From Schmidtea nova (lineage: Eukaryota), in assembly GCA_044892505.1 (NCBI GenBank), contig CM097882.1, forward strand, positions 220,844,001 to 220,908,000: a DNA stretch of 64,000 nt, written 5' to 3'. This document shows positions 24,330 through 50,761 of this stretch, piece by piece. The notes below the pieces were generated by a model. It saw only the letters and a program-made list of their open reading frames with translations. It was not told the DNA's origin and did not search any database. The stretch's first letter is position 1. Every line of letters begins with the position of its first letter. A program made the translations under genes and the position numbers.

Positions 24330-25900
24330 TTTTTATGTTCTTTCTCTAGCATCAAATTCATAAAGTCAATTTTAATTTCATAAAAATAAAATTTTTAATT
24401 AAAATTTTTAAAAATATTTTTCATATTTTATTTTTAAAATTAAATTTACAATTTTATAAACAATTCCAAGTGTCAGGGTGAAAACATTCAATTGTTACAG
24501 ATTCTCCATAAAATAATTCTTAATTCTTTTCATATTTCACTCTCATTCCGTGTTGAGAACTTGGCGTAACAATTATTTCATTTGTTTGTCCGAATTTGTT
24601 TATATAATTTCCGATCATCTCTCTACTGACCTTATTCCGATTCAAAACAAAAGGTCCCATCTAAATCAAATATGGATCGAGTACATAAATTTGTTCGATT
24701 TCATTCCTATTTTCAATATTATCAATGGATAATGTCGCTCTTTGCACAATTGCAAATTTTAACTTTTCATGCGAATTAGGTGATTTTATTTTTAATTTTT
24801 CTTCTTGTTTTTCATTGTTTTTTCGCATATTGTGATTTCTGTCATGTTGGTTCTCATTGTTTCATGGCCGCAAATTATGCAACATTTATGACGGCAACTG
24901 CCTATGGACATAAGCAGACTACACATTCAACGTTTTCCATTTTATTTTTGTTTTTGACTTTATCAATTAATAAATTCTAAGTTAAAACAATTTCAAAATA
25001 AATACTAATTCTTTCAATTTTGATTGGATAAAATTTATATATTACAATTAGATATAATAAAATTTTAAATAACGTATACTCTGATTCTTTAAAAATTATA
25101 TCTTTGAGTTCGAAATTTTCATATCTTATAAAGACTTAAAAATTTCTTTCTTTGAGTCTTTTTGTTCGAGTTTTTTTGTAGTTCTATCATGTCTACGTTG
25201 TTAATATGAATGAAAAATAGTCTATCTAAATTTTTGAAAATTGTTTACCTCAAATATTTTCTGACAGACAAAATAGATCTTTTTTATGGGGGATGCCTGA
25301 GGTTTTCTGACAATGATAGTAACATAATATTTTATAATTGGTTTTATTATTCTATTTTAGGTTATACTATTCTTTTGAAAGTTATTAATGACTCTCGTTT
25401 ACTTCTTCCCAAATGTTGCACATGTTATCTGTGCTGGGTTCATGGAGGGGTTAGATGAAAAATGTTCTAACAATGACTAGGGATCCCTCATCCATGATCA
25501 TACATAAAATTGCAATTATACACTCAAGCGCCCTTGATTATTTCCCTATATAATCAAGTTGGTGATGCGCAGGGTGGTTAAACAATGATGGGAAGGTGAG
25601 CACTATCACTAGTACTACTCCCCATTTATGTTTACGGGTTCATTGCTGCCGTTAGAAGGACTTATGCTTTAATCATCCGCTTATTTATTCCGCAATAATC
25701 TTTCAGAAAATTTATCTTTAACATTGCTTATTCTGCATGAAGTGTGTTAACAAAATGCTCGCTTAATTATTTATTTGCCTTTATTAGGTATTTTGTGAGA
25801 TGAGTTTATATTTTTTTCCTACAGTTATCTAATTATTTGTTAAGCTAACTAAATCAATTTAAATGAACAATAACAATTTTAAGATGACACGAAACTTTAT

Positions 25901-26497
25901 TCAATCTTTAATTAGTTCAGTGAAAACTCCGGCTGGGGGAAAGATTTCCGTTAATAATTCCGCTTCGGTCATTTGATGCAGGCCATCTACTTGGCTCTGT
26001 AATCGTTGGGCAAACAGCTTTCTTTGCCGTCGTCTTTTCTGCCCGATGCGCTTGCGTTTCTGGTGCGCATTTACAGTTGGAGTGGCTGGAGTAATTTCTG
26101 GAACTGGCTTATTGCGTTCGTCAATGAGATCATCGACATCGGTACCAATCGAGTTGACGCTTTTCTTTTCCGATGTCCATTCCTGATATGTAATAGGACG
26201 GATTTGATCTCGCAGTTCCTTCTCGATGTACGAGGCAGTTACGGAATGGAGGCATTTTCGAAGCTTTATTTTTGTAGCCTCCCATTCCATTTTATACTCT
26301 GTTGCAGTTTGCTGGGCACGTTCGGTTTTACTGATTTGCTCCTTCATCCTAGCCGGAGCAAACCAGCTTTTGCGTAAATATGTGACTTGCGCCTCGGCTT
26401 TAATTAATTGTGCTTTGAGGAGACCCAATTCCTTGTCCTGGGCTCTCCGGATTCGCCACATTTTTTCCAACTCCCTGTGTGCCACATCGGTATTCAT
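25901..26497 (-). CDS. Unknown 198-aa coiled-coil protein with a basic NLS-like stretch (KRKRIGQKRRRQRK); probable retroelement accessory ORF
   Basis: Intact ORF, GC well above the flanks, ttctag|aATG acceptor context. Confidence 0.55.
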   Translation of the reverse strand: MNTDVAHRELEKMWRIRRAQDKELGLLKAQLIKAEAQVTYLRKSWFAPARMKEQISKTERAQQTATEYKMEWEATKIKLRKCLHSVTASYIEKELRDQIRPITYQEWTSEKKSVNSIGTDVDDLIDERNKPVPEITPATPTVNAHQKRKRIGQKRRRQRKLFAQRLQSQVDGLHQMTEAELLTEIFPPAGVFTELIKD

Positions 26498-26687
26498 TCT
26501 AGAATTGATTTACGATAATTACTTTTGTCACTTTATGGTTCAATTATGTGTAAAATTAAAAATCTGAATACATGATTATTAGGTTAAGAACGTGATCGAT
26601 TTAATAATACAAAACAAAAACTCAAAACAAAAACCACTGATGAACATTAATATTTTTACTCATAAACAAATTATCGTCAAAAATTTC

Positions 26688-27167
26688 TTATCGCCGAAAT
26701 AGGCTGTGCATCTCGTTGTTTATCGGCAGCTGACGAAGGCGAGCCCAAGAAAACGAGGGTTGTCCTTTCTGGCATTCCTTGCCGAACGGTTTCCGCGGCA
26801 GAAACTCGTGCAGGCCCAATCGACACAATTCTCGGCGAGGGATATGTCCCCAATAAATTATGCGGCTCGCTCGTCCTTCTGCGTCCTTTATTACCACGAT
26901 CATTCGACCAAATTTGTTCGAGTAAGGCCTTTGGTTAATTGGCCAGTTCGGTCCTCCACGATAGAGTACTTGGTCACTTCCTCCTGCCCAAATTGAAAAC
27001 GGGCATTTCCGACCAAACCCATGTCTCCACTTATACATTTGGGCATTGAGGGTCCGTAATATCGGTGTAGGCAGCTCTTTGAGTTGAGAGACCATTCCAT
27101 TTTCTGCATTCCATTGTTCCAAGTTCCGCATTTGAGTCAATTGGTTCATAATCTCGGCAGTCGACAT
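26688..27167 (-). CDS. Unknown 159-aa basic protein; probable retroelement accessory ORF
   Basis: Intact ORF in a GC-elevated island, aatttag|ATG context. Confidence 0.5.
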   Translation of the reverse strand: MSTAEIMNQLTQMRNLEQWNAENGMVSQLKELPTPILRTLNAQMYKWRHGFGRKCPFSIWAGGSDQVLYRGGPNWPINQRPYSNKFGRMIVVIKDAEGRASRIIYWGHIPRRELCRLGLHEFLPRKPFGKECQKGQPSFSWARLRQLPINNEMHSLFRR

Positions 27168-27215
27168 CTAAATTACTTTATTGAATATGAAACATAGGAT
27201 TTAACGGAGGAAATT

Positions 27216-28617
27216 TGTTGGGAGAATTATTGATACCGCGTATAATCACAAAATTTAGTTTAAAATAAGATTTAATTTATTTATCTTCGCCGCGATATAC
27301 CACGGTCGGAATTACGTTTTTATAATTACATGGCCTTACGCTAGCTAAAGCGTTCAAGAAAAATAAAAGTTAAAAATCTCCGCGCTATGTACAGCGATCG
27401 GTCTATAAATCAGGGAATTCCGCGCCATGTATGGCGATCGGTCTAAGATTATTTTTAGCAGTTGTATAAATTATTTAACAGGAATGTAGTGACGTATTTT
27501 TGTCTGTAATCTCTAAGTAAATCTTATCGAGTCGCACTTTGACCCGTAATGAAATTCGAAATTTGATCGAGTGGAATACCATTTTCTCTCATTCGTATCA
27601 TCTCGCATATGCTCCAGAACCTCAAATTTTTACCCTAAATTCTTAATACTTGGGAGGCTAATACCTGACTTTCATTTTGTGCTGCATACCTTCTGGTAGC
27701 TCTTTCCGCCTTTCCTACTGCGCTCCACACTATGCCCTCTGTGCAACCGACTGTGCGATATTTTAATTTTAGTTCGAAATTCGTCGAAAATTTTTACAAT
27801 TCATTATGAAAATATTTATCAAATAACTAAGTGTGAATCGAAAATCATTAGTAATAAATTAGCATCTATGCCCGTTCTCGAATTATGCTCACAAAATTAA
27901 AGGAATAAAAAGGTTGAACCGCCATGTGAGACCGTGAGGCCCCACAACGACGACTCGGACTCCCTCGTCGCGTGAGCAGCCTAGGAAGTATAATTATATG
28001 CATTAAAATATCAAAAATAAAGTAAATTTGAAATATAAAATTATAATTGAATAAAAATCATGGGTACATTAACATCATAAAAGAAACAAAAATAAAATAT
28101 TACGTTCCGTACTTGAATGTATTATTGAATGTTTCCTTGGATTTGAAGTAAATCTGGTTCTCGAAAAATCGTTCGGTTAAATAGAAAAATAGTTCTTAGA
28201 ATCAAAGTTTAGTCTTGATTGTAAGTTTTGATAGCAGTTTTTTTTAACAGTTGAGTTGTGATTTTTGGATCGGTATTTATACTGATCCGTCTGGTTGGAT
28301 TGACCAATCAGGATCAGACCGTCCATCAAAGTATTTTTATTATTTTATTCTAACCTAAACATTATTTTGTTTCCTTTTCCGGTTTCTCGCACTATTATTT
28401 TATTTAATTCTATCTTTTCTTATTTCAGGCCCCCTATTGCTGTTGTTTACCGGTTTATTTTCAAAATTTCCTTTTACTGAAAATTTATCAAATATTATTT
28501 GTCATTTTATTCTTGTTTTTAATTTGTTTTTATTGTTATTTTTATTTTTATCATTTCCTTATTGTTTCATGTTTTCGTTCTTTTATTGTGTTTTTAGGTG
28601 ATTTGGCGGGCCCAACA
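27216..28617 (-). repeat. Candidate 3' LTR of the giant element (unconfirmed)
   Basis: On the - strand it starts TGTTGGG and ends CCCAACA, like the inner element's LTR termini. It is non-coding and follows an AGGGG-containing tract. The partner LTR is not in the window. Confidence 0.3.
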
Positions 28618-28819
28618 TCACCCGGGGACCCCTAAAATTGCGTCCCGCAATTAATTATACATAAATACTTATATTCATCATCCATAAAAAGTTTTATAAA
28701 GTTATACATGCAAAGAAAAATCACATAAGGTGATCGAATTTATACATATCATAAAGTTTGTCATTAAATAGTCAAAATATAATGATTTGTCACAATAGTT
28801 CGATAAGTTATCATAATGT

Positions 28820-29389
28820 TTATACAATTTGTTCGATCGTCTGGCTCGCTTGGGGTTGAGTTCGGGTCCTCTCGTTGATTATTTGTAGCTCGTAGTGGGT
28901 TTGGATGTGGTTGAGATGGCTCCTTATTCGTCTTTGAGCTCGGTTATCTCGTCTGGAGGTTTGGTTGAAGATTTTCTGCTTTTGATTTAGGATTTTTATT
29001 CTATACGAGGCAAGCAAGATTGTGATTGCGATGATAGTTGTGCTGACTGATAGGATTATGATGATTGCTATGATCCATTTCTCTTGATATTCTATTTCAG
29101 CTTGGGATAGGCTTTTTATGGGTTCTCTACCTTCTTTCAGGATTTTTCGGGTTTCTTTTAATTTAAGTTGTTGGTTATCGAAGATTTGTTGGATTTGATG
29201 ATCTTGATTGTGGGGGTATTTCTGTCGGAATTCGTTGATTTCTTTAATTACTTCTTCGATTAGGCTGTCTACTTTTTGGTAGGTTTTGTCGGGTAGAACT
29301 CGTAATTGGGTTTCGGTTAGTTGTAAATCTTCTTTCTGTAGGGTAATGGTTGTTAATCATAGGAGTGTTGCTATTGCGAGCTTTCTCAT
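28820..29389 (-). pseudogene. Type I membrane protein (signal peptide, helical ectodomain, TM, basic tail) with one premature TGA at 29357-29359
   Basis: MRKLAIATLL*LTTITLQ...EKWIIAIIIILSVSTTIIAITILLASYRIK, in frame with the listed 28820-29017 ORF. Confidence 0.6.
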
Positions 29390-29464
29390 CTCTTTTATAC
29401 ATCGGTCAAAACAGCTTGACACTTTTTATTTTACATAATTTATTTACACTTGGTTTCCGCACAT

Positions 29465-30511
29465 TTATACAAGGGTTTCGTTGGGTTCGTGAAAACCTTC
29501 GTCTTGAGGTTCCACCTGGTTTATGGGGAGTGGCATCCATATTATCGTGCTTCTCCACATTTCGACTTCTTCTCGGTATGTGTGGGATATTTGGATCTCT
29601 TCGTCTAACAAGTATTCCAGATAGTTTGCTTGTTCTGTTAGGGTTTCTATTTGTTTTTCTAATTCCGTTAATTTTTTCTCTCTCTCTTCCTTCTCCATCA
29701 TTTCTGCTACTGCTGCTGTGATACTTGTTTCTTTTGTTGGTATTGGTTTTTCTGCCAGCTTCTTTCTCAGTTCTTCGTTTTCTTTTGTCAAATTTGTTAT
29801 GTTCTCTTCATAACTCTGCCTCGTTTCTTCCAGTCTTTCTTTAGTTCTTTTTAATTCTATTTTCTTCTGGGTAATCACTCCTTGATATCCATTTATGTCT
29901 CTTTTCATGTTTTCTTCCTTGTGATTCCACATACCTTTTTATTGTTCTTGATTGGCTAAGTCTTCTCCCATTCTTTGTCCTCGATAAGTTAATTCTTTAA
30001 TTTTCTTGGCTTGTTCCCTGATGAATTGTTGTCTTTTCTTACTCCATACTTTATTTGACGCTTCTTGACTGATCTTTTGCCCTAATTCCTCTTTTAATTC
30101 ATCGATCTCTTTAAACAGTTTCCAATCATCGCTGTACGCTGTTCGTTCTATTATCTCCCTTGCTTCCTTGTAAGAGTCTTTTGCCTCTTTTTTCCAATAT
30201 CTTGCTTGTTCTGTGATTGACTGAATCTTATGGTCTGTTTTTATCTGTTGTCTATCCCTATCCTCTCGTCGCTCTTTCATCATTTCTTTGTAGTATTCAT
30301 TTTGTTGCCTCAGCAATTTGTAGACTTCTATTTTCTCTCGACTTCTTTGATTCGTTTTCTCGGCTTCTCTTAATACTTCGGTTTGTCTTTCCAATTCCTC
30401 CTGTTTTCGATAATAGGCATGGATCCATAATCCAATCCGTTCCATATGATTGCTGATAACTTCGTCTTGATGTACGGTTACTTCTTGTAAGGTTACTTCT
30501 ATATTTCCCAT
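29465..30511 (-). pseudogene. ~348-aa E/K/R/Q-rich coiled-coil protein split by one in-frame TAA (29939-29941)
   Basis: ORFs 29939-30511 and 29465-29932 share a frame and are 6 nt apart. Heptad-like composition. Confidence 0.6.
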
Positions 30512-30624
30512 TTCTATAATTACAGATAAAAAGAATATTTAATCAGTTTTTATTTTTATTGTTTTTGATTATTTGTTATTTCATATTGTTTCTATACATT
30601 TTATTTACATGGTCACTTCCTTCA

Positions 30625-32001
30625 TTACGCCAACCATCCTTTTCTATCCGTTTTCTCATGTCTCTCCATTTCTATGTATAACGTGTCCTCGTATAGTCGC
30701 TCCCATAGGTTTTCTTTCCTTATAAACATTGGTTCTCCTGCTGCTAGTCCGCATTCTGTTGTTGGTTTTTCGCTCGTACTCGTATGTTTGTCGGTTTCAA
30801 AGAATTTTTCTACCGGTTTTCCCATACTTCTGATTCTTATAATGACTCCTACTTTCAAGGGCCATTCTATTAGGTCATCGTATTCTCCTTTACATAGCGA
30901 GAAAAATATTGACACGTGTGTTCCTTGTCCTCTTCCGTCTCCATTTGGGTATACCTTCAATCTTATCTTAACCCCATTTTTCCATAAATAAAATGGTGGG
31001 CTTATTACTGCTGTTTTAGTCATATTTCGAGCTTCTGTTAGTTTGTCTCGGAAATCTGTTATTTTCCATAAGTAAGGTGCAATTGGTAAGTCCCTTCTTT
31101 CGTCAATTTCTCGTATTAATTGATTATATTGTATTTCCATTCCTTTTCCCAATTCTTCTATGACTATTATTTTTTCTTCCATTCTTTCGCGAGTTAGTTC
31201 AAACTGCTCTCTCGTTTCTAGTAGTAAACTCATCATTATTTTATGTGATTCTACTTCCTTTTCCAATTTCTGGATTGTCTGTTCCGTTTCTTTTGCCGCT
31301 TCGTTTGTCATCTCCACATGCATTAATGCTGCTTCTTCTAGATGCTGTTTCATGGTTTGCCGCGTCCGCTTCTCCTCGCATCCCTGTTTGTTATATGGGC
31401 ATTCTCTTGGTCTTTCGGTACATACTTTCCAATGTTCATGTAACTTTATTTCTTCTGTTATTTCACAATTGTTTAGACATTTGCTTACATATTTTCCGCA
31501 TACTTTCTCCTCTGTTATATTCAAGTGTTCTTCTTCGATTTTTCTCCTCGTTTCTCGAGTTTCCCAATACTCGCATGCGATTTCTTCTTCTTTACATTTG
31601 TCCTTGTGTTGTTCTCTCTTCTTTAGAATTATTGTCTGTTGGCACTTCTCGCATTCGGCTCTTTTCTCCTCGCACTTTTCCATATGATTTTCTATATTAC
31701 TTATTTGCCCTTGCCATGTACAAGGTGTATTTATACACTCCGTTATGGTGCTCATAATTTCTCTCTGGGTTGCTTTGTCCGTTCTGGTTTCGTCCAACAC
31801 TATTCTTCCTTCTTTACATTCTGGGCATGTTGTTATTCCTGTTGCATCTAATTCTTGCATACATTTTGTACATATTCTACATCCACATATCGTTTGTCTG
31901 GGTTCTCGTAATAAATTGTTACATTTCCCGCATGTGAGCCTCTTGCTCCATTTTCTGTTTTCTAGTCTCAAAATTTCGATTACTCGTTCTTCTCTTTCCA
32001 T
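30625..32001 (-). CDS. Intronless full-length TRAF-family protein (RING, TRAF zinc fingers, coiled coil, MATH/TRAF-C), most like TRAF2/3/5
   Basis: CGKCNNLLREPRQTICGCRICTKC..CPEC RING; repeated C..C/H..C fingers; YLWKITDF..SPPFY..LKVYPNGDGRGQGTHVSIFFSLCKGEYDDLIEWP MATH motif. Confidence 0.93.
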   Translation of the reverse strand: MEREERVIEILRLENRKWSKRLTCGKCNNLLREPRQTICGCRICTKCMQELDATGITTCPECKEGRIVLDETRTDKATQREIMSTITECINTPCTWQGQISNIENHMEKCEEKRAECEKCQQTIILKKREQHKDKCKEEEIACEYWETRETRRKIEEEHLNITEEKVCGKYVSKCLNNCEITEEIKLHEHWKVCTERPRECPYNKQGCEEKRTRQTMKQHLEEAALMHVEMTNEAAKETEQTIQKLEKEVESHKIMMSLLLETREQFELTRERMEEKIIVIEELGKGMEIQYNQLIREIDERRDLPIAPYLWKITDFRDKLTEARNMTKTAVISPPFYLWKNGVKIRLKVYPNGDGRGQGTHVSIFFSLCKGEYDDLIEWPLKVGVIIRIRSMGKPVEKFFETDKHTSTSEKPTTECGLAAGEPMFIRKENLWERLYEDTLYIEMERHEKTDRKGWLA

Positions 32002-32093
32002 TTTCTACAATAATATATACACTCGACTTGTCATTTATTTTTGATTTATCTTGTTTTTATTTTTACATATTTACAATTTTCCGCTTTATTTAT

Positions 32094-32450
32094 CTATGGC
32101 TCATTCGTTGAATCTGGTTCCGTTTCGTTGTTTAATCTATTTATTACCCAACTCATCCATCCTTCTTCGGATTCCTCTCCTTCTCCTCGTGTTAAATGGT
32201 TTATTTCTATTGCTTGTCTTTGATTGGTGTTGCTTATCGTTTGATTTTCTCTGGTGAGTTCGGTTATCACTCTTTGTTGTTCTTCTATTCTGTGTAATTG
32301 TTCGAAACAGTTGTTATAACTTTCTGATAGTAACATTTGTTTTTCCGCTAATTGGTTCTGTAATGAGTTGACTGTTCGTACTCATAAATCGCATTGTGCT
32401 TTCCATCTCATAGCCATAGTTATTTCCGTTGTTTCGTCTTGTTCGGTCAT
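32094..32450 (-). pseudogene. 118-aa coiled-coil accessory ORF with one in-frame TGA
   Basis: MTEQDETT...CDL*VRTVNSLQNQLAEKQMLL..., with tttag|aaaATG context. Confidence 0.5.
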
Positions 32451-32575
32451 TTTCTAAATTATATACATCGTTTACTTTGCTTTTCTATCTTTTTACAATT
32501 TTTATAATATCAATACCCATACTAGTACGGTAATGCTTTGTTATTTACACTTTTATTTACAGTCATAATCCGCCC

Positions 32576-35500
32576 CTATACATTCATTACTATCCCTTCG
32601 TCGTATCTTTCTTCGTCTTCTATTTGTTTCCAGAATTCTTTACCTTTCGTTCTTCTTTGAAATTCTTTCTGTATCTCTTCTGGTATTTCTATTCCTTGTT
32701 TCATAATTTTGATATCTGGCCATTGTAAGGCTGTCGCTTTGTTTCTCTTCCTGTATTTCCAGTATACTATCATGCTGGTCGTCAGTATTCCATACGCTAT
32801 TAATATTCCCATACTGATCAATCCTATTACTGCTTTTCCCATGTTTGTTTCTTTGTTTTTATTCTGATTTACTTTTATCTCATTTTGCGTTTGAGCCTCT
32901 GGCCTCTTCTCCTTCTGCACTTGACTCTTGACTTTGTTCATTACTTCTTGTGTAGACCAATGGCGATTTAGTAGTTGTTTGACGTCGTTTTCCGTTGTCT
33001 GGTTTTCTACGCCTCCTGGTTCGATCCGTTGCTGTATTTTCTCTGAGATCTGATATAATCCGCATTCTGGTTCTTCTGAACCTTTTCTGGTAAAGGTACA
33101 TATCGCGTATGTCTTATTTACTTCCATTTTCTTTAATTCGATTTTTTCGTTATTCCTTGTTTCTTTACAGTGGGTTAAGTTGTTTTCTTCTACTTCTAGG
33201 TTATACTTTGTCCAACATATTCCCTTTACTGTCTGATCAAGTCCTGTTAATGTCAGAGTTCTTTCTGTTTTAGTTGTTGGTTCCTTTGTTAACCCTTCTT
33301 CATCGAATTTCAGTATCTCTCCTTTTTGGAATGTCTTGCAATTCTCTATTCCTGGTTGACTTTCTTGGGTTCCTTTCTCCCATATACATATACTTCCTTC
33401 TCCGTTCATTTGTATTTCTTGTATTTCGGTTTCCTGGTTTGTTCGTGATTCGTCGCTTGTCTGAACTTGGTATTCCCTTGGTTCGTTGTACCATCCCCAG
33501 CATATTTTGTTGCTACTCTGGCCTTTTCTCCTTATTGTCATAGCCATCTGTTCTATTGTTATTCCTTTATCAATACGTTTGGACATTGCTATTATTAACG
33601 CTATGCATACGAAGTCCTGTTGGGGTGATACTCCTTCTCTCGTATTATTTGTGCTTCTCTCCCCTTCTCTTGGTTTGTCCGTTATGTTTTTCATCTGAGT
33701 TGCTGGTTGATCTATTGTGTTTTTAATTTCTTTCTTTGTTGGTTTTACTTTATACCATTCAAGTCTAGGCGTTTCATATTTTTGACATACGACTGTCTTA
33801 GGTAGCCCCGACTTCTTTTCCCTTTCTATTATGCATATCCGATGCATGGTTCCTCCATCCATTTCTTCTATTCGTACTATATCCTGGTCGGATTTTCTGA
33901 TTATGCATTTTAGTGGGTTATTTTCTCCAATTGGTTCATCTTCTCTATACCAACATATTTTCTCGGCTTCCTGGACATTTATTACTTTTATCCCTGTCTG
34001 TGGGTTTATTGCTTCTTCCCTATTGATCAATGTCAATATTATTGTTAGACCCAACCATTTTGAACTCTGCGGTAGGCTTCTGGTTCGTTTTTCATATTTC
34101 GTCTCTTTGCCTTTAATCTCTTTTATTTCTTTGTCTTCGTTGTTCATTCCTAGTTTTCCGATTTTTGCTTCTTTCTCATTCCTGGTCGATTTTGGTTCTT
34201 CTCGTGCTTTTTCTTCTAGTATTTCAACTCCATGGCTTGTATTATCTATATTTAGCCATTGGGTTGCCGATTTTCTTGGGTTTATCTTGCGTATCCATAT
34301 AGCTGATAATGCGATTATTACTGGTATGGTCGCTGTTAATATTCCTAAGCCAATTAATTCTTTAATTTGTTTATTCTCGTCTGTTTGTATAGATTCGCTT
34401 TGGTTGAACATTATTCCATATTGTCCTTTTAGTTTTCTCCTTAGTTGTTCTCGTTCCTCCTGCTTTCTTTTGACTTCTTTGATAACTTCTTCAGGTGTCC
34501 ATTTTGCTTGAGGGTCGGTTATTATTTTTTCTGCGTCCATTTGTTCATTAGTTTGGCTTAGTTCCTTGAATTCGATTTTCCTTGCTACTCCTTTTGATGT
34601 CGCGTTTGCTGGTGTATAGTAGGTTTCGCATCTTTCTTGTTGGTTTCCTAGTGCGTCCATTTTTTCTATTGCGCATACTTCGTACTCGCTATTAAATTGT
34701 AGTTTTTCGATCTTGATTTCTTTATTTGTTTTTCTGCACTCTCTTGATTGTCTTCTTATATGTTTCTGGACTATTATCCAACATATTTCTAATGTTTTAT
34801 TCTCTATTTTCCATAGTGTCAGGGTTGCTGAGGTCTTTTTCTCGGGTTTTGTCGTAACTTCTTGGCTTATCAGTTGTTTATTGTTTTTAAAGGTAGTGGT
34901 GTACTTCGGTTTTCCTTTGTTTCGTTGTCTTCTTTTATTTTTCCGTATTAACGTTTTGGTTCTTGTTCCGGATGAAGTTGTATATATTCCGCATTCTAGG
35001 TCGTTTATCGTTATTTGATCACCTTTCTTTATCAGACATATTTCGTAGGTTTGCTTACTTTCTAAACCTTTTATTTGTATCGTCGTTGCTCCTGTGCTTG
35101 TTCGGCATTGTGGTGTCATTCTTTTATTTGTTTCCTTTTCGTACCTCCTCCAGCATACTCCTTTCACATTTGGTTCTATCTCTTTTATTTCTAATGTTAT
35201 GTTTACTTTCTGCTTGATTTGTTTATTTCTCTTCCTCGTTCTCCTTCTGAACTTTATTACTTCTCCAGGTTGGAATGTTTTACATTTTGTGGTACCTTTC
35301 TTGTTTCTCTCTTTTTCTAGTAGGCATAGTTTGTACATCTTGTCTGCTCTTACTTCGGATACTTTAATTACTTTATTTGTTGTTGGTTTTCAACTTTTCC
35401 TTATTTCGTTTACGCCGATTTCTTCGTCATTCCTCGCCCAACATTTTATGTTAGTATTCTGTATATCTTCCACTTCTGTTATTGTCATAGTTTCAATTTC

Positions 35501-36796
35501 CATCCCTTCCTCTAGTCGTTTTATTATTATTAGTATGAGTGCTAAGCATAATACTTCCATTTGGTAAGACACTCTTTCGGTTTCGTTTGTGGTAACTCTT
35601 GCTTCGGGCCTCTCTATTGTAATTCGTATAGTTGGTGTTGTTTGCTTATCTATTGCCTGGGGTTTTTTGTTTTCTGTTCCCTGTGTCTCTGTTCTTCCAC
35701 ATTTTCCGACGATGTAATCTCCTTTGGGTGACTGTTGTACTGTCATGGTTGCTTTAGGTGTTTGGTAGTTTGCACATGCGATTGTGTTGTGTGATCTTGG
35801 ATGCTTTTGTTTTCTAACGGTGCATATTTTGTACCAGGTATTTAGATCTAAGTCATCGATCTCTATGATCTCTTGCTCGTGTTTTGAGATTCTGCAATCC
35901 ATCGGACTATTTTGTTCCGTGATTTTGTCCTTTTTTGACCAACATACTCGTTCGATTCCTTTTGCGTTTTTTATTTGTATTATTGCCCTTTCTTCACATG
36001 TCATTCTTTGACTTGGGTTAATTAACGTTAAAATCACTGTTAATAATAGTAACTCTGGTTTGAAGAATGGTTTTATGGTTGATTTGTAACCTGTTCGTTG
36101 GGTGTCATTTTTATCTCCTTTGTCTCTTTGTTCTCCCTCTTCATTTCTTTGTTTTTCGTCTTCATTTTTCTTTTCTTCTTTGTCTCGTTTCTTGTCTTTT
36201 CTCTCGTTTTCCTCTTTATCGGGTGGTTCGTGATCGTTCGAATTTTCTGAGTTGTTATCGTCGTCACTATCTGTATTGTCATCTCCCCCTGGCTCGTCGA
36301 AAATGTCGTCCTCGACATTGATTTCTTCTATTAGTTTCGCATACGCTAATGTCGTTAGATTGCTTGCCTCAAACTCTTGTGTTTCTACATGTTCTGGTAT
36401 TACTTTGTTAGTGGATTTATATTCCAAGATTTCCTTTTTGGCCTTGATCCAATTGTTGATGTATGTCTTCATCAATTCTTTCCATTTGCCTATGTATTTT
36501 TCTTCTTTCGGGCTGGTTGTGATTCTTAGATCTTTTCTTTCCATAAACATTTTCAATATCTCTGGCCATTTATACGTTATTAAGGCACTTCTTATACACC
36601 AGTTTTGGTTATGTTCTGTAAACTCATTGATCCTGAATGCTGGTTCGTTAGTATTCGGATTTATCCACGTAAGAATTGCTTCTGTTAGTTCGACATTATG
36701 CATCATTGTTAGTACACTGGGTTTCTTGACCGTATCAGTTAGGTAATCTATTTCTTCCTGATTGGAGATTGTAATATGAAGTTGACCATTTCCCAA
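32576..36796 (-). pseudogene. C-terminal polyprotein segment: acidic linker, then two duplicated modules of signal-like segments + Cys-containing FN3-like repeats + TM
   Basis: ORFs 35390-36796 and 32576-35338 share a frame (TGA at a conserved Cys position). Repeats follow ICW..C..I.I..L....Y.IC..C..Y.TP. TM segments IGLGILTATIPVIIALSAIW and IGLISMGILIAYGILTTSMIVYW. Confidence 0.7.
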
Positions 36797-37956
36797 TTAT
36801 GTGTTAGTAATGCTACATCCAAAATTGAATTATCTTTATCTGTCTTTCCTGTAAGTCCTGCACCTGCTTTGTATAGTTCTTCCAACACCTTTGTTTTTGT
36901 TTTAGCCCTTGCTGCAAATACCATAAGTGTATCTCCTTTCTCGTCTACCATATTCATGTTGCTTCCGCAGTTTAGCATTACTCTTGCAATTTCCATTACT
37001 TTTCTATCTTTGCCATTTCGTAGAGCTCTATGTATGGGCATTATTCCGTCCTTTGGTAGTAAAAATGTTACTGGCATCTCTTTTTTTATAGTCGTTATAT
37101 CGTTACCATTGTATGTTCCTTTTGCGTATGCGTGTACTTTTTCAACTAATGCGCCGAGTATTTCCAGTGCATGTTTACTATTCTCGAATTCCAAAAACAA
37201 TTCTTTTGCTTTTTCTTGTATCGCATCTAGTCTAGCTTGGTATGGTGCTTCTGCTTTGAAGAGTGGTGTGAGTTTCTTGTTACTTTCTCTTTCCTTTTTC
37301 TCCAAAACCTGTTTGCATTTTTCGGGATGGTTTAAGATTTTTACTAATTCCTCATACTCACTTACTATCGTCTGGTATTTCTCGTTAAAATTGTTTATGT
37401 CTTTGTATGTTATTAGTTTATCAAGTGGTTTCGCACACCATTTCCTAATCTTGTTGAATAAGGCCTCCTTCTCTTTATCGAATTTGTATTCTTCTTCATT
37501 CTTTGTGATGTTTATGTTTCCTCTGTCTAATAAGGTTAGTAATGTCTTTTGATCGCAAGTAAATTTCAAAAGATATCTTAACAGCGCGTTTTGTGCTTCG
37601 CTGTATACTTCGTTAATGTCTAAGACCCATGTATCATCTTCTGGTCGTTTCCATTTGATTAACTTACGGATCGTGTTGCATTTACCAATTTTTATTGCTT
37701 CTTTGATAATGTCTCCTTTTATTAATTCGTCTATTTCCCACGTGGAGCTAGCTATTATGTATTTCAGCATTGGTTGGTGAGAACTCCATATTACGTGATT
37801 GAGCACTGTTTTGTCTTCTCTATCTCGTTCTGTCCAACTGAAACGGGCTTTTATCAATAAATCTACCATTTCTTTATCTGCTTGGTGGATTGCGGCTGTC
37901 ATTAATGGAGTTTCTTGTTCACGATTCCCCACGTCCAAGTTTTGGTTTGTTTCTTT
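36748..37956 (-). pseudogene. Ankyrin-repeat segment, 3' part (after the nested insertion)
   Basis: ETPLMTAA, KTVLNHVI, GIMPIHRAL, GDTLMVFAA and NSILDVAL ankyrin cores. Probable 1-nt frameshift near 36770 into the next segment. Confidence 0.85.
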
Positions 37957-39009
37957 TGTTGAGGTTGTTAAATTAAAATTATCGTAAATTAAATTAGAAT
38001 TATTTTGAATCAAAAGAAAATTGAAGTGAAACGAAAGAGAATCGAAATCGAAGCTGGAAAACGGAATAGGTGTAGATCAGGGATTGGCGAAGAAGATAGT
38101 GAGCAAGAAATTGTCAGAAAAGGTCTTGAAAGGGTTGAAAATAGGTAAAAAAGGTTAAAACAGAAATCATTAATTAATTAATTAATTGGCTAATGGAAAA
38201 CCCGGGCTAATGGGAAGTCCGAGCCAATGGAGAACCCGAGAGATGAAGAAACCTCGAGCACGGGTATTAGGGAAAATAAACAAACTGAACGTTGGAGAAC
38301 GATTATCAAAACAAACAAAACGACTTTTGGAGAGACATTATTTGAACAACCGAGCGCGGCAATCGAGAAAAATAAACAGTTTAACTTTTAGAGAACCATT
38401 ATGGAATCAACAGGATAAGTGAGGGTAAATAAAAAAAAAGATCGGAAATAACATGAAGGAACGGTAGAAGTGATTAATTACAGTTATTTTATCATAATAT
38501 CAAAGGAAACCGCTGGTAATCAAAATGATTATTGGAGTATATAAGGAGACTCCAAATTCAGAAAAGGCGGCGTTAGCCTTAGGTAGGGAAGAAGAAATCG
38601 ACAATAGGTTTTGGAGATTGTGAGAAGAAGTGAAATTGGGAGAAGTGGAAAATTAAGGAATCAAAGAAGTCAGATCAAGAAAATTAAAGGATATCAAAAG
38701 TGAATCAAAGAGTTGAGTGAATTAAATTCAAAATAGTCAAACACATCGAATCAAAGGCAAGGAGTCGAATAAAGGAATTAAAAGGTGATATTTACTTTCA
38801 GATCGCACAGGGTCGAGACTTCCGAGGCGAGGCTTGATCGAGTAGATAAAAAGTTTGATTATTAATTTATTGTTGTGAAATCGGTTGTGATTGAGAAGTG
38901 TAAAGTGTGATAACAAATATACGTTGGGAAATCGGAGTTTATTGATTTGTCTGAACACGAGGAGTCAGAGTAACCAACGATCAATCTTTTGTTATTAGAA
39001 AACCCAACA
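37957..39009 (+). repeat. 5' LTR (1053 bp, TGTTG...CAACA)
   Basis: Differs from 50764-51835 by 3 substitutions I could see, two 1-nt A-run indels and a 17-bp duplication. Confidence 0.97.
38538..38544 (+). promoter_or_regulatory. Candidate LTR TATA box (TATATAA), with an Inr-like TTCAG ~20 nt downstream
   Basis: Motif and mid-LTR position only. Confidence 0.45.
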
Positions 39010-39017
39010 TATATTAT

Positions 39018-39035
39018 TGGTGAGCCCGACGTGAT
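39018..39035 (+). promoter_or_regulatory. Primer-binding site complementary to the tRNA-Trp 3' end
   Basis: TGGTGAGCCCGACGTGAT; reverse complement ATCACGTCGGGCTCACCA vs eukaryotic tRNA-Trp ...ATCACGTCGGGGTCACCA. Confidence 0.85.
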
Positions 39036-39227
39036 CTAACGTTGGTGAAAGATTATTGAAAATAGATATTTGCGACTCGATATAAAGTGATAGAGAAGTA
39101 TTGAAAATTTGAAGTTGAGTTTGAAAGTTTGAAAGTTGGCTGAGGACAAGTAAATTTAATTTGTTTTTATTTTGAATTTTAGATCAAAGTGAGTCGATAT
39201 AACCTCAGAAGTTTGAAACAAACACAA

Positions 39228-40262
39228 ATGGCAAATGATAATGCTGTTATGCCTCTCAATAGAGAGATGATTGATTTTGCAAGCTGTCAAAAATTACCGG
39301 TGAATCAGTATGGTGGAGATCCGGTTGAGTTTGCAGACTTCATGGGAGATTATTATATGTATGCCAAAGCTTATGGATGGTCACAAGCAATAATGGTACA
39401 AAGATTTCCGTTATACTTAAAGGGAGCCGCAAGAGAAGCTTGGCAACAAGTGGACAAAAGGACAGTTGGAAATGATTGGGCAAAATTGAAGGATGCAATG
39501 GCAACGAAATTGGTAGGTTGAGATATCAAAAGGATAATGCGACAGAGATTTTACAACAGAGTTCAAAATCCAACGGAATCGGTAAGTGAGTTTGCATATC
39601 ATCTAAATACTTTAGCAGATAAAGCCTTTGAAGCAAAGCCTGAGCAAGTTGATATGGTGAAGCAGGTTAAAGAACTGCTTCAAGATCAATTCATAACTGG
39701 AGCTCATCCCGAAATAAAGAAGGCATTATGTTATGTAGATTTTGCAAATTTTGATGAACTTGTGAAGAAAGCAATGAAAATTGAACTGAATTTAAAAAGC
39801 ACCAGAAAATCTGAAGCATTCGCAGCAAATGTTGAAAGGAGAGAAAGGTCGATAACACCTGTCAGAAATCAATGGGAATCCAAGAGACCAATCCAAACAA
39901 TCAGTTCTCCCAGATTAGGTACTAAGATAGAAACTAACAAAGCAGCTTTTGGTAGCCAGCTAACCGAGAGATCAAATAGTGTCGTATGCGAGCACTGCAA
40001 AAAAATCGGACATTATTCGAACCAATGTTGGTTCAAATATGGCAGAAATAGTAGTCCTAAAAGAATATTTGTGGAAAACAAACCAAACAATAGCAACTTG
40101 GAATGTTATCGATGTGGGAAAACGGGTCACATTAGCAGAAATTGCTTTTCTAAAAATCGATCACCATCAACATCTCCGTCACCGCAACGAGATAAAGTAA
40201 ATACAAATGGACAAATTCAATGTCATTCATGCAAAGGTTATGGCCACATGGCTCGATCATGC
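39228..40262 (+). CDS. gag: Gag region: capsid-like domain plus three CCHC zinc knuckles
   Basis: RFPLYLKGAAREAW, then CEHCKKIGHYSNQC, CYRCGKTGHISRNC and CHSCKGYGHMARSC. Confidence 0.93.
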
Positions 40263-40789
40263 CCAAAGAATGCAGAAAGATTCAGCAGACCAATACTGAA
40301 GAGATCTATTAGATTTCAGGATGAATCATCCAACGCTAATGTAGCTTATGCTCAAAAGGACGAGTTTAAGGAGAAAATGGAAAATGAATTCCGGGAAATG
40401 AGACAGAAATTAAACAAACTAATGTCAAAATTCGAATCAGATGAGGAAATTGATTCTTGTATGGTGTACGAAAAAGAAACCGATGAAAAAGAAAGTCTTG
40501 GAGATAAAGCGAAAAACGACTTGTCAAACGAAAAAGCTATATTATTGATAAATAAAATAGAAAGATGGTATACGAGGATGGAAACAAATAATCCAAAATT
40601 GAAAGAGTGGATTAGCGAACTATCTCAAATGCAACTCAGCCAAAGAAAGTTGAAAAATATTTTAAATTTATGTTCAAAGTTCTACAATAAATCTCAAGAT
40701 GATGAAATTGCCAAACTGATGAAAATATTTGGAAAAGCTTTGAGATTGACAAAAGGTCTGCCTGATATTTTTGTAGAAACCACCGATGG

Positions 40790-41465
40790 AGATGACGTAA
40801 AATTTCACTTTTCTATTAAACCAGATGGGCAGATAAAAGATTTGAGAAAGCTTATTATGTCAAAATACCAAGGAAATGAAGTACAAATAAAATTTATACA
40901 ACGTCAAATTGGTCAATTAGCGGATGAGGAATTCTTGGTCGATTATGGTCTAATTCCTGGATATAAAAACGAGGTAAAAATTTTAAATGTCATTAATTAT
41001 TCAAATTTAGCTGACAAAAGTTGGAAAAAAAAATTACAGGATTTGCGAGATATGCTATATGTCGGAGATGAAGATGAAATTAATAAATGCCTTGATTATA
41101 TAATGAATTCAGAAATTGATCAAAAATCAAAAGAACAATTATTTGAAAATATTTTACCTTATATTCATAAAACAACAAACTATCAAGTTAAATTGAAGGA
41201 AGTAATACGAATGCTAGGTCATGGTTACCGAGTATCAGATCATACTTCAAAATCCTTAGTAATAGCTCTAAATATGAATGGAAAAGTAGAATACCTACAA
41301 GAGCACTGGAGCATAAAGGTGGCGAAATTACGACGGAAAGCTGCAGAAACATTGGGCACCGATGGAATCATCATACTGATTTTCAAAGGAGTGGAATTAG
41401 ATGATGACGAATATTTTGTCAATTGCGGAGGCAGCCCGAACTATATAAATAATGTCTATGCCACA
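40790..41465 (+). CDS. Two ubiquitin-like domains within the polyprotein
   Basis: IKDLRKLI...LADEEFLVDYGL and VAKLRRKA...LIFKGVELDDDEYF resemble the ubiquitin V..LK..I / LIF.GK.L.D...L.DY.I pattern. Confidence 0.55.
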
Positions 41466-41909
41466 ACACAAATGAATATTTATGAGGATGGAACTCATTG
41501 GCCCTTTATCGTAAAAGAAGATGATAACAATACTGTGATCAAAACTGAATTATCTGAGGAACCGAACGAAAACGAGTGTGAAAATTATAAAAGCAAATTA
41601 ACGGAGGAACCAAGAGAAGCCGAGTGTGACGAGTGCGAATCAAAACAAACAGATTTGAGTGAAGTGCAAAACGAGAATATTAGTAATGAAGCAGATAAAA
41701 TTTGTGCAGTAAATCAAGAGATTAGCAATGTAATTGAAGAGATGTTAATTGCAGAGAGAATGAAATGCGAATCGAATTTTGTAGAAACAGAAGACGGTGG
41801 TCAATCGAACAACCGGAAGCGAAGAAAATACAAGTTAAACAATAAAGAGGAACTAAACGATCTAGATAAAACGGAGTCCAGTGATGTGGAAAAATTAGAC
41901 TTAAATGAT

Positions 41910-42280
41910 GTAAAGCAAACAAAATTAATTCTTAAAGGGTTGGCATCGGAATTATATGCACTGGATGAAAAGAATATATGTAACGATAAATTCATACAAC
42001 AACTTGCCAGAGAACTGAAAGGACGACTTCCTGTAGCACTTAAAAAAATTAGTAAAGAAGACATATTTTGCGACGAAACAGTAATCAAAGAGCTAATTAA
42101 AAACGGTTTGAATAAAGATGTGGTATTATCAGTCCTTGCTTATATTGTTTTCGAAATTGGTATCTACCGTTGGCTGGAATCTGATGAATCGGAAAAGTGG
42201 ATAGAACAAGCAGCAAAAGTGGTAAATACGTATGTGAATAGTTGGATCAAATGTAATGGTGGATGGAAAAATTTGACACC
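41910..42280 (+). CDS. Bcl-2-like domain within the polyprotein
   Basis: VVLSVLAYIVFE (BH1/alpha5-like) and YVNSWIKCNGGWKNL (BH2 WI..NGGW), followed by a hydrophobic segment. Confidence 0.7.
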
Positions 42281-42326
42281 AAAACCAGAAAATTTGGAAA
42301 GGGTGTATGAGCCAAAAAAGGGGAAA

Positions 42327-44190
42327 ATGATAGTTCCATGGGTATCTATGTTTATTATCATAATATTAGGATTTATCAATACTACAACGTCATTGGTAGC
42401 TTATGATTGTTCTCAAACAGAAATGGGAAAAGTATACTCGCTAGTAGATGTAGCTGAATGTCTGGATGCATATCCGAGACATTTAAAATGGGCAAGTGAG
42501 ATGAAATATCATGTTTATCAAGAATCAGGATTTAGACGAGTAAAAGTGAGAGAGTGTACGGCAAAAAGGACCACATTTACATTTTATTGTGGCAAATGGA
42601 GTCATTCGTCGTTAATAAAAATGCATTCAATCCCTAGAGTAATTGAGATAACTCGCGAAAACTGTTTAGCAGCGTTTCAAACAGGAGAATTAAAAATAAA
42701 TGCGGAAATTAAGTTAAAAGCGAAATTGAATCACAAAATTCGCGAAACAATTGCAATAAAAGGGGTGATCAAAGCAAATGGCGATTGCGAAGGTGAATCG
42801 CACAAGGTGGGTGAACAGGTTATTGATAAAGTCGTTGTTATAGAAGAGTACGAATCAGAGTTGAGATATTTTGATGGATCGTTCGATGATGACACGGGAA
42901 AATTACAAACGCATCCATTTTGCAATATGAGAGAAACCAGTTGTAATACAGGTGAATCAATTTTAGTGTACGACGTGAATGTGAAAAAGTGTAACTTAGC
43001 GCATTTAAAATCGATGCCTTTCAAAGAGATAACAGGAGAGCAAATTCAAGAGAGACCAGAAAGTACAATTCTAAATTCAGTGATGAATACAACGATTAGA
43101 ATTACTCCTTTGCGAATGAAGGATACTCCAACGGTATTAATGGCAATATCCCCGAATGATGGGATGAGATTTCTCAGAAAAGGTATAAATACCAAGTGTG
43201 GACAAACAGTATATGAAACAAATTATAAAGGAATTTACGTATCAAAAAGAATTGTCGAGGAAGCTCAAACGAAGTTATATTCAGAGGAAATTAAACTAAC
43301 GAATTATTTCAATAACAAAATTGATTATCTGTTTCATTTTAGCCAAGATACGGTTGAAAGTGTGTATCGAGAAATTATATTAAATGATTGCAAGTTAAAT
43401 AAGGAAATTTTGCGAAACAGAATGGCGATGGCTATTACAAATCCGAATTTAGTTGCTCCAATGCTAATATCAGAGAACGGAGTATTTGCTCGAATTTTTG
43501 GCGAAGCGTTGTATAGCTATAAATGCAAAGCTGTACCTATCAAATTGATGAAATTCGATCAATGTACAAATGAATTGCCAGTGAATTTTAACGGGAAATT
43601 GCGATTCATGGAACCGGTGACACGCATCCTACTGGAAGAGGACGTGAAGCCTAAAGTGTTGCAATGTAATAGATTATTGGCTCCACTGTATCGCTTGACG
43701 TCTGAATCATGGATTGCACTACCCGATCACAGAGGAGTGAAAGTTCCAGAGAAATTGGAGTTAACCAAATTAGAGTATTTGATTAATTTTACATCGCTAG
43801 ATAGTATGACGCAAAGTGGGATGTATTCAAGTGATGATATTGAAGCGGCCCGGAGAAATTTATTATTTCCATCAAAAAAGGAAAGGGTGATTATGGAAAT
43901 GGTGGACACTATTCTCCCGAGTGGAACTGGGAAAGCAAATTACGACTACTTGTTAACACCTGATCATTACAAAAGAGCAACATATAACACGATGAAAAAG
44001 ATATGGGGAAAGTTCATGTTTATTGGTCAAGCGTGTGCTGGATTAATTGGAATCTACGTAATAGGAATCGTGATTAAAGTAATAATCTCGCAGGTGTTGT
44101 CAACACACAGATTGTATACTATTACGGGATTGTCTTGGAAATTAGTCATGGGATGCGTTCCATTGCTAGCCAGATTTTTTATCACACATC
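42327..44190 (+). CDS. env: Internal signal peptide + viral-type class III fusion glycoprotein (chuvirus G / gB-like) + TM
   Basis: MFIIIILGFINTTTSLV-AYDC; YSLVDVAEC; FYCGKWSHSS; DCKLNKEIL..MA.TNP; GEALYSYKC; CTNELPV; C-terminal hydrophobic segments. Confidence 0.8.
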
Positions 44191-44599
44191 ACCAGTATAA
44201 AGAGATGGAAACTTTGAAAACACGACTGATGAAAAAGAAAAAGGTAAGTTATATCGATTTGACTACTACTTCTAACGATGACAAAAATGATGACGAAAAT
44301 ATCAATGAATCCGCCCCGTTATACTCGGAGGAACGAATGCAAAGTAACACATTGAAAAACTATCAACTGCTAAAAGAATCGCTGTCCAATAATGATAATC
44401 AGGATACCTTTTCTAGATTGTGTATACCAAAATCGTTTATCCAACCACTACCAGCATATCCAGTCGAAAAATTGAGGGAAATGAAACCAGTCGAAAATAT
44501 TGCTTTACAATGTGAGAGAATCGAACCAACAAGTGCCGAAATCGAAAGACGAAACCGGTTAGGTTTACCCGGAAATTATGTATTGATGACGTTAGCAAA

Positions 44600-44940
44600 A
44601 ATTGGCAAACAACCACGAATATTAATCCAACTAAATAAAAAGAGAGTGGAGGCTGTGGTGGATTCAGGATCAAGTCATACAATTATATCAGAAGAGATAT
44701 TGTCGGCAAAGGAAAAAAGACAAATAAAACCATCAAATAGCATAATCAGATCACTGTCTAAAAACGTATTGAGAATAATTGGAGAAATAGAAGTGGTACT
44801 TCTAATTGGTGACAGAAAGATTACACATAACGTACAGATTATGGAAAAAAGCCCTGTATTGTGTTTGATTGGAATGGATGTACTGGAGCAGTTAGACGGA
44901 ATTTCACTGGATTTCAAAACTGGAAATTTGATCGTGGGAA
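44600..44940 (+). CDS. Retropepsin aspartic protease
   Basis: AVVDSGSSHTII (DSG at 44661) and CLIGMDVL. Confidence 0.92.
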
Positions 44941-45349
44941 AAAGTGGCGAAGTCATTCATAATTTAGGAGAAGTATTTCTCAGTCAAGCGTTAACCATCC
45001 CACCTCAAACAGAAATAATATATTATGCGAACGCTGCTGGCGTAGACGATGACGAATTTATATTTGAACCGAATCAAACGTTAATAGAAAAATACGAGAC
45101 CCCGATGTGTGACGAAATTGTGAAAGTGGAAAATCAATTATTACCAGTGCGAATAGCTAATTATGGTGACAAGTCAATTCGGCTAAAACCAAAGACGAAA
45201 CTAGGAAAATTGTCTAATATGTTGATAGAAGCGGAAAGGAAGATTCCTAGAAACGTAAAAATTTATAAAGAACCTGAAGTAGTAAGTACTGATTTGACCG
45301 AAGAGCAAAGGCAAAAGTTTACAGAATTGTTGAGGAGATACCGGGATAT

Positions 45350-46650: not shown

Positions 46651-46949
46651 ATACAATGTCCAGAATTCCCAATGGAGGCAGTGAAAGTGAAGGTAGTACA
46701 GAAACGATTGAAGGCACGATATTTGCCGCAATTAAAGCCGTTAACAATATGATAGAGTTACAAAATGAACAGAAAAAGGACAATCAACTTAAACAGTTTT
46801 TTGAACGAGCAATTACAGTCGAAAAAGAGAGAAATTTAAAGCAAATAATCAATGAAAATCACAAATATATAATTCACGAAGGAATATTAAAATGTGTAAA
46901 AAACGGTGAGATACTAATCGTGATTCCTGAAAAACAGAGAGATTCATTA

Positions 46950-47990: not shown

Positions 47991-48109
47991 GAAGACGATG
48001 AAACAAGATATCCACTTCGATCAAAACAAAACAAAGAAAAAGTGGATGCCATAGTTCAACAAAAATTTACCAAAAACCCAGTCCCAATCAGTTACATTAC
48101 AAAAATGTT

Positions 48110-49220: not shown

Positions 49221-49428
49221 CAATGAGTTTATATTGCATGCATGTATATATATAAAAAAAATATATATGTATATAATTATTGATAATCTGTATGGTTAAA
49301 AGTAAATTAGAAATGTGTGACCTGAATGAAAAATATTTTGGTTGATCGAGTGTTGCTGAGGAGGGTCTGTCCTTGTGCGATGGAAGGAGAGATGTATTTA
49401 AAGTATTAATTATCTTTAACTTTAGGAA

Positions 49429-49672
49429 ATGCAGGAAGAAGAATCACTAAAAGAATGCCTTAACACCATGAAAGAGATGAGAAAAAAAAATGAAGGCAAT
49501 GGAGAAACGAATTTTCGATCTGGAACAAGAGAATTTGGTGGTCAAAAGACGATTTGAAAAAATGGAAATTCTTCTCTTCAGATATGAAGCCGAAGTGGTT
49601 CTATGGCGAATGAAACTACAGGAGCAGGAAGACGAAACTATGGAGGAGGGAGAAATGAATAACTTGGACTAA
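49429..49672 (+). pseudogene. Small coiled-coil accessory ORF with a slip in an A-run
   Basis: tttag|gaaATG QEEESLKECLNTMKEMRKK / MKAMEKRIFDLEQENL. Confidence 0.4.
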
Positions 49673-50751: not shown

Positions 50752-50761
50752 AAAGGGGAGA
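50752..50761 (+). promoter_or_regulatory. Polypurine tract
   Basis: AAAGGGGAGA, 2 nt before the 3' LTR. Confidence 0.85.

Follow-up and report, generated by a model that had tools for sequence, protein, structure and literature searches.

How might a single long terminal repeat (LTR) retroelement produce a separate message for each of eight genes? The question is raised by a 64,000-nt stretch of Schmidtea nova DNA (GCA_044892505.1, contig CM097882.1, positions 220,844,001 to 220,908,000; hereafter the window), the minus strand of which, from beyond position 64000 down to 25432, we assign to one Burro-type gypsy LTR retrotransposon, by described architecture rather than by sequence or phylogeny against the named Burro1-4. 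Based on conserved acceptor-like AGs before its genes, combined with a conserved leader and donor in its LTR, we propose that one mRNA per gene would be made, for eight genes, by cis-splicing the short LTR leader onto many acceptors, a reading to which we give a probability of roughly 0.55.

The Pfam matches of the element follow the order Gag (with CCHC knuckles), mononegavirus-type fusion glycoprotein, protease, reverse transcriptase, integrase and ankyrin, with a TRAF-like open reading frame (ORF) behind them. Gag, fusion glycoprotein, protease, reverse transcriptase and integrase form one polyprotein with env between gag and pol, and the cargo comprises TRAF/MATH, ankyrin and RING domains here, BIR occurring in a second family only. 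LTRs recur at a spacing of ~26.7 kb in many copies, within the roughly 25-30 kb of a Burro-type LTR element, and the 3' LTR in the window is 98.5% identical to the 5' LTR in neighbouring DNA. Copies were searched for in the 1.25-Gb genome, the best 40 of 650 candidate loci being scored.

Conserved AGs before the start codons

A sequence-only reading of the window had placed a splice-acceptor AG 0-3 nt before the ATG of nearly every accessory ORF, and the seven contexts it listed are all present. The claim holds in a stronger form, i.e. for every stand-alone ORF, because the ORFs that lack such an AG are not stand-alone genes: ORF 29932 is the tail of accessory ORF 3, and ORFs 35338, 36706, 37902 and 52154 are fragments of one polyprotein, the frame of which is continuous in another copy. 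The site at 29389 is weak. As background, 544 sense-strand ATGs in the window have an AG ending 0-3 nt upstream in 34% of cases and a YAG in 13%. The comparison with this frequency, which the same reading had called for, favours it, with AG at 6/6 (P = 1.5e-3) and YAG at 5/6 (P = 2e-4) minus-strand sites, these six having been chosen after being seen. When stand-alone ORFs are counted, 6 of 7 have a YAG 0-3 nt ahead of the ATG, versus the 13% background (P = 3e-5).

The pattern extends to other families. In the second family (B), which carries a BIR-RING gene, a YAG is found within 7 nt at 7/8 stand-alone ORFs, versus 24% background, and a CAG stands 6 nt before the polyprotein ATG. In a third family (C), at ~66% DNA identity, all four sites are kept, with TAG/CAG switches and AG-ATG distances of 1-7 nt. 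Orthologous acceptors swap TAG and CAG and shift by 1-4 nt, and since the AGs switch in this way and move relative to the ATG, a 3' splice site is indicated rather than a stop codon.

Within the family, the LTR genes were followed through 74 LTR loci, i.e. the 75 examined minus L159, dropped for lack of the TATA motif, a set that includes LTR pairs and the window's own two. The AG of LTR ORF A is present in 74/74 (CAG 53, TAG 19, GAG 2) and the TAG of LTR ORF B in 72/74, one of the remaining two being without the AG and the other without the ATG. The LTR contains 60 AGs outside coding sequence, of which just 4 are shared by all 28 other LTRs; the acceptors of ORFs A and B account for two of the 4, and two LTR subfamilies retain both though the proteins are just 38% and 57% identical. 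Among the genes of the interior, the TAG before accessory ORF 1 is found in 24/24 other loci and that before accessory ORF 3 in 25/25 (L023 excluded, as this site is unmapped there), an AG precedes the TRAF exon start in 117/117 genomic matches, and a RING ORF located between the 5' LTR and gag, outside the window, has a CAG 3 nt before its ATG, with AG in 11/12 copies. Several of these genes are shortened in the present copy: accessory ORF 1 has 22 amino acids here and 118 in 22/24 other copies, accessory ORF 3 is joined to 353 amino acids in 16/25 other copies, and accessory ORF 4 has 10 amino acids here, 134 in L023 and 189 in 13/14 covering loci of L060-L078 (L002-L011 end at the locus edge).

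The polyprotein acceptor adds a boundary of a different kind. The T-rich YAG at 62888 is invariant in 12 aligned sequences; the preceding 400 nt contain 6-9 ATGs, and the following 520-652 nt are devoid of them in 12/13 copies (L234, where the gag ATG lies beyond the tile, is excluded), for 8.1 expected and P(0) = 2e-4 for one sequence. Such an ATG-free stretch is the pattern expected of a spliced 5' end scanned by ribosomes. The stretch holds an in-frame Gag extension (62299-62826, minus strand) of 153-197 codons across copies, with an ATG in no copy read and a crude ratio of nonsynonymous to synonymous polymorphism of ~0.24; its translation would have to begin at a non-AUG codon or at an AUG contributed by a leader.

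The splice-acceptor interpretation is well supported: the AGs are enriched and conserved, they switch between TAG and CAG, and at one of them an ATG-purged stretch has its exact start. The listed AGs are very probably real features under selection. The assumption of a single array stands for the four internal 3' genes; the sites at 27167 and 26497 fall outside it, belonging to LTR genes that recur in the 5' LTR.

The predicted LTR leader, its donor and the spacer motif

Two sources of a leader had been suggested, namely an LTR-derived common leader and host spliced-leader (SL) trans-splicing. The first gained a TATA box, an ATG-free exon and a donor; for the second, no positive evidence was obtained. 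The TATA motif is present in 30/30 aligned LTRs, with 99% identity across 28300-28260. The predicted leader exon lacks an ATG in 74/74 LTR loci (ATG-free length 115-170 nt), a count to be read with the relatedness of the copies and with the 14% of single-sequence shuffles that are ATG-free as well. The GTAA donor with its T-rich tract is kept in 74/74 LTR loci despite a variable exon side, and GT directly follows the 14-mer preceding the donor in 140/140 genomic matches, a count that is weak alone as the copies are young. At the level of sequence, the element thus combines an LTR promoter, a short leader and a conserved major donor with an acceptor before each gene, as in complex retroviruses.

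A second LTR exon from 27980 was considered and rejected, as its AG is lost across a whole LTR subtype. One joint in the read contigs described below, 27402-27892, falls where the LTR subtypes diverge from each other and where the GT is not conserved.

Behind the donor, in the predicted first intron, lies a two-hairpin element, shared by the two LTR subfamilies, with folding z-scores of -2.8 to -3.8 here and -3.6 in a diverged LTR, where similar hairpins are formed from different sequence. Both hairpins have similar loops, followed by a U-tract. We infer a packaging or export signal. No Rfam match was found at the site, and a U1- or SL-like small RNA in this block, also considered, was rejected as Rfam gave no support.

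LTR ORF B, without a Pfam match, contains an arginine-rich motif that is retained in the 57%-identical LTR subfamily amid an otherwise diverged part. It may resemble the RNA-binding motifs of Rev and Tat, and a function as an export or splicing regulator is a lead only. For LTR ORF A neither a Pfam match nor, at 87-279 amino acids, a relative in the protein search was found; its reading frame is open in most of 150 genomic matches.

The spacers between the cistrons carry a second shared feature. The spacers of the three families, 1,953 nt in total, contain UGUAHAUA 20 times, versus once in 22.0 kb of their coding sequence, counts reached in 0/5,000 shuffles. In 12/15 spacers, 14-18 nt separate its start from the upstream stop codon, and the motif is retained in 97/98 site-copies checked, in spacers that vary little overall. 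The spacers thus seem to hold an RNA signal anchored to the stop codon, which we take to be a Pumilio element from the match to its consensus. Enrichment of AAUAAA is confined to this family, with 9 occurrences in 405 nt (P = 0.002), versus P = 0.81 in family B and 0.33 in family C. UGUA is reportedly absent upstream of planarian poly(A) signals, according to the part of PMC5068929 that bears on them, which weakens UGUA as a CFIm poly(A) element. Given the lack of AAUAAA enrichment in two of three families and the reported absence of UGUA from this position in planarians, there is no clear sign that the RNA is cleaved between cistrons.

In the proposed mechanism, the donor of the LTR leader would be joined to each conserved YAG in turn, giving one mRNA per gene. 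The polyprotein would likewise be made from a spliced mRNA, because ~6 kb and three ORFs separate the promoter from its first ATG. For the first four genes, the donor-to-acceptor distances are ordinary, i.e. ~0.9, 1.6, 3.0 and 5.2 kb. Both hairpins and the primer-binding site would be retained by unspliced RNA alone, which would serve as the genome for packaging and copying, and UGUAHAUA behind the upstream stops would likely be bound by a Pumilio-type protein, for control or stabilisation of the message. Promoter use, splicing, the pairing of donor and acceptors, and the roles of the hairpins and of UGUAHAUA we infer from the genomic DNA.

Table 1. Positions of the element's predicted genes, signals and spacers and of the nested element. 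Numbers are window positions unless a locus is named.
Feature	Position	Strand	Remarks
5' LTR	L013:1375-4594		outside the window; matched to the 3' LTR
Polyprotein acceptor and 589-nt ATG-free stretch	62299..62889	-	AG 62888-62889; contains a 176-codon in-frame extension
Polyprotein gene	32576..62298	-	broken in this copy, interrupted by the inner element; Pfam; continuous in another copy
125-nt spacer after polyprotein stop	32451..32575	-	UGUAHAUA at 32561, 32549 and 32467
Accessory ORF 1	32094..32450	-	acceptor AG 32454-32455; frameshifted in this copy
92-nt spacer	32002..32093	-	UGUAHAUA at 32075 and 32021
TRAF-like ORF, 458 amino acids	30625..32001	-	RING, zf-TRAF, MATH (Pfam); acceptor AG 32005-32006
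113-nt spacer	30512..30624	-	UGUAAAUA at 30609
Accessory ORF 3, coiled-coil-like	29465..30511	-	acceptor AG 30514-30515; frameshift-split in this copy
75-nt spacer	29390..29464	-	UGUAAAUA at 29448
Accessory ORF 4	28820..29389	-	weak acceptor 29390-29393; stop near start in this copy
3' LTR	25432..28617	-	3.19 kb; TG...CA ends; 4-bp target duplication
Predicted TATA box/promoter	28274..28281	-	5' LTR copy would drive transcription
Predicted leader exon	28104..28255	-	ATG-free
Predicted major splice donor	28098..28103	-	GTAA and T-rich tract
Two-hairpin RNA element	27919..27989	-	in predicted first intron; in diverged LTR, L020:6648-6722 (+)
Acceptor of LTR ORF A	27168..27170	-	AG directly before ATG
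LTR ORF A, 159 amino acids	26688..27167	-	no known family
Acceptor of LTR ORF B	26499..26501	-	TAG, 1 nt before ATG
LTR ORF B, 198 amino acids	25901..26497	-	conserved arginine-rich motif
Second gypsy element	37957..51835	+	nested in ankyrin segment; 1.07-kb LTRs
Inner element, acceptor and start of small 3' ORF	49423..49431	+	UGUAUAUA at 49243 and 49268 in its spacer

Weighing leader splicing against other routes

Several observations weigh against cis-splicing from the LTR leader to all eight genes. The four 3' acceptors need introns of 22-25 kb that skip several earlier acceptors, their spacers of 75-125 nt fit flatworm operon spacing, and the ATG-less LTR leader leaves the conserved, equally ATG-less Gag extension unexplained. 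A clear pyrimidine tract is missing at several acceptors, and the 29389 site is weak, with GAG or AAG in 17/25 copies and TAG 2-3 nt before the ATG in 8/25; one further copy has only AAG. The counts overstate independence, as the copies are related and LTR pairs are included. Family-B ORFs without a homologue here give just 3/4 (P = 0.046), and for the TRAF gene of that family the count uses the second methionine, chosen after inspection. No splice junctions were seen in the genomic-type data looked at. The contigs of four runs, of even depth and genomic-DNA-like, mark no predicted acceptor as a splice among 15 of the 45 joints and 24 of the 1,589 loose ends. Processed genomic copies were not detected by patterns at two donors and three exon starts, a search that misses variants outside the patterns; five matches considered as such copies were rejected as unrelated DNA. 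None of four internal deletions inspected has GT-AG ends.

The main rival, which we regard as possible although clearly less likely than not to be correct, is a hybrid arrangement, where the LTR leader serves the first acceptors and the four 3' cistrons act as an operon, whose RNA would be cut after each cistron, with the host SL added to the next. The layout is compatible with SL trans-splicing of these four cistrons: same-strand cistrons, each with an acceptor near its ATG, are separated by spacers of 73-274 nt in three families, i.e. no more than 300 nt apart as in flatworm operons, the LTR donor is 22-25 kb distant, and AAUAAA is found in all four spacers of this copy. Some SLs end in AUG and could start the ATG-less Gag extension, the frame of which opens immediately after a TAG in 11/13 copies. 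In the relevant parts of the literature, operon spacing peaks near 100 bp in Macrostomum (PMC8629364) and is at most 300 bp in parasitic flatworms, in which operon-internal cis-splicing is rare (PMC12582326); SL trans-splicing is known in planarians (PMC12582326, PMC8629364), and the subgenomic RNA of a C. elegans gypsy element receives SL1 by trans-splicing (PMC3315495). Against this arrangement, the TAG preceding the Gag extension has purine-rich surroundings and is replaced by TAA in 2/13 copies, and the orthologous AG-to-ATG distances differ in phase between families, so that an AUG from an SL would not stay in frame. Moreover, the AAUAAA enrichment does not extend to families B and C, and a genome search found no SL-type join to the TRAF exon. 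Finally, an LTR donor exists upstream in cis, although 22-25 kb away, and an upstream donor is said, in the pertinent part of PMC4558846, to out-compete the SL for an acceptor. A fuller version, which we hold a little more tentatively still, has the four 3' cistrons as an SL operon, perhaps with the polyprotein started from an SL AUG, Pumilio-type sites 14-18 nt past the stops that tune the cistrons, and the arginine-rich LTR protein together with the intronic hairpins guarding the unspliced genome.

A local promoter in each spacer, with the AG as part of the start region or of a very short local intron, is unlikely. The spacer motif resembles a Forkhead DNA site. In addition, the part of PMC4402516 concerned describes env of Oikopleura Tor3b/4b as made from an internal promoter. 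However, the motif of the 3' cluster occurs on the sense strand only, its fifth base is A or T, and it keeps its place relative to the preceding stop, TATA-like words lie just 13-20 nt before the ATG, ATGs are found within 58 nt upstream of the AG in 41/74 and 27/72 LTR loci, and TAG/CAG switching is left unexplained.

Marginally less credible is translation of one long RNA without splicing, by stop-restart, with the TAG closing a short upstream ORF before each ATG. Such a TAG does close an upstream frame of 4-5 codons at 32450 and 32001, and the spacer motif is anchored to the stop codon that precedes it; however, CAG is found instead in 53/74 copies of ORF A, before the RING ORF and, in families B and C, at the orthologous positions, and the expected swaps to TAA or TGA occur in isolated copies only. 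Chance, or start-codon context on a purine-rich strand, is very improbable given the YAG enrichment, the held-out families and the ATG boundary at 62888, even though one in three sense-strand ATGs has an AG 0-3 nt upstream and the invariance of spacers that are near-identical among close copies is weak evidence.

Nested DNA and known systems

The inner gypsy element has an acceptor of its own, before a small 3' ORF (49429) of 42 amino acids in this copy and mostly 80 in others. The AG is present in 20/20 copies, the ATG being replaced by ACG in 9/20, and it is kept in 4/4 aligned relatives at 66% identity and lost in one closer copy. At 47487-49220 (plus strand), this element also has a fusion glycoprotein within its polyprotein and, past the integrase, an additional unannotated region with a hydrophobic stretch at its end.

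Other observations concern the surroundings and the copies. Tandem-repeat arrays with 32-nt and 31-nt units occupy 63340-64000, between the RING ORF and the polyprotein acceptor. The flanks at 19665-21946 and 6829-8432 hold long inverted repeats of the miniature inverted-repeat transposable element type and a piggyBac-type transposase fragment (Pfam DDE_Tnp_1_7). The loci L020 and L023 have interiors 94-95% alike to that of the window element and LTR ORFs just 38% and 57% identical, which suggests LTR exchange between subfamilies. Host-like MATH/TRAF genes, a number of which have long single coding exons, are densely clustered on C2 at ~405-455 Mb (L193-L222) and may be the source of the TRAF gene of the element. 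In the LTR of the BIR family (L027:6720-7330, plus strand, repeated in L029), an intron-containing piece of an RRM gene lies antisense to the element, a candidate Y14/RBM8A. Nested in another copy (L018:3939-9775, plus strand) is a run of ORFs with P-loop ATPase-like and integrase-like genes, which we take to be of the Maverick/Polinton type.

Complex retroviruses such as HIV-1, HTLV-1 and foamy viruses use a major donor and many acceptors, with the packaging signal behind the donor. The element resembles them in its predicted short leader, one donor, an acceptor per gene, structured RNA in the unspliced RNA only and a small arginine-rich protein. In contrast to them it is gypsy-type and about three times longer, its predicted introns reach 25 kb, the gag polyprotein too lies behind an acceptor, and the ORFs are non-overlapping, with motif-sharing spacers between them. 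It thus appears to work like a complex retrovirus without belonging to that family.

In architecture, the closest systems are the planarian elements Burro and GYPSM1 (PMC6431247), which share a length of ~30 kb, long LTRs, a very large polyprotein, tandem repeats, a mononegavirus-like fusion glycoprotein between gag and pol, and ankyrin, TRAF/MATH, RING or BIR cargo; a D. tigrina element in the same paper also has TRAF as a separate ORF. They differ in that, here, TRAF is downstream of the polyprotein, ankyrin follows the integrase and two ORFs reside in the LTR. The sections of that account which deal with these elements are silent on accessory-ORF expression. Burro1 RNA increases upon PIWI knockdown according to PMC8532177. 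The remaining comparisons draw on parts of the papers cited. C. elegans Cer1 (PMC3315495) is also a gypsy element, the spliced subgenomic RNA of which can carry the host SL while full-length RNA skips the sites; unlike here, it has one SL site, one subgenomic mRNA and no cistron array. Akin to the proposed splicing from the LTR, env of Oikopleura Tor3a is spliced from the 5' LTR (PMC4402516), and in tapeworm ta-TRIM solo LTRs an LTR-started RNA is cis-spliced at a site used for trans-splicing in a sister species (PMC4558846), each with a single acceptor. Flatworm and nematode SL-resolved operons (PMC8629364, PMC12582326) have same-strand genes spaced by ~100 nt, each with an acceptor near its ATG, as here; unlike them, the present array is in a retroelement, an upstream donor is present and poly(A) signals between cistrons are inconsistent. 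The pertinent parts of PMC6880638, PMC2770079 and PMC11410931 hold nothing bearing on the expression route. In the literature searched, neither complex-retrovirus-style splicing over 25 kb nor an SL-resolved operon was found described for Burro, and existing papers may describe Burro transcripts or SL targets.

In conclusion, the exact coordinates of the predicted junctions can be tested against planarian RNA data, and the stop-anchored UGUAHAUA represents a second testable feature common to three families. If cis-splicing is true, a gypsy element would perform complex-retrovirus-style splicing across 25 kb; if the SL route is true, a mobile element would resolve an operon through host SL trans-splicing. 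The finding would account for the expression by a 30-kb retroelement of eight genes, among them TRAF- and IAP-like regulators that act on signalling and cell death in the host.

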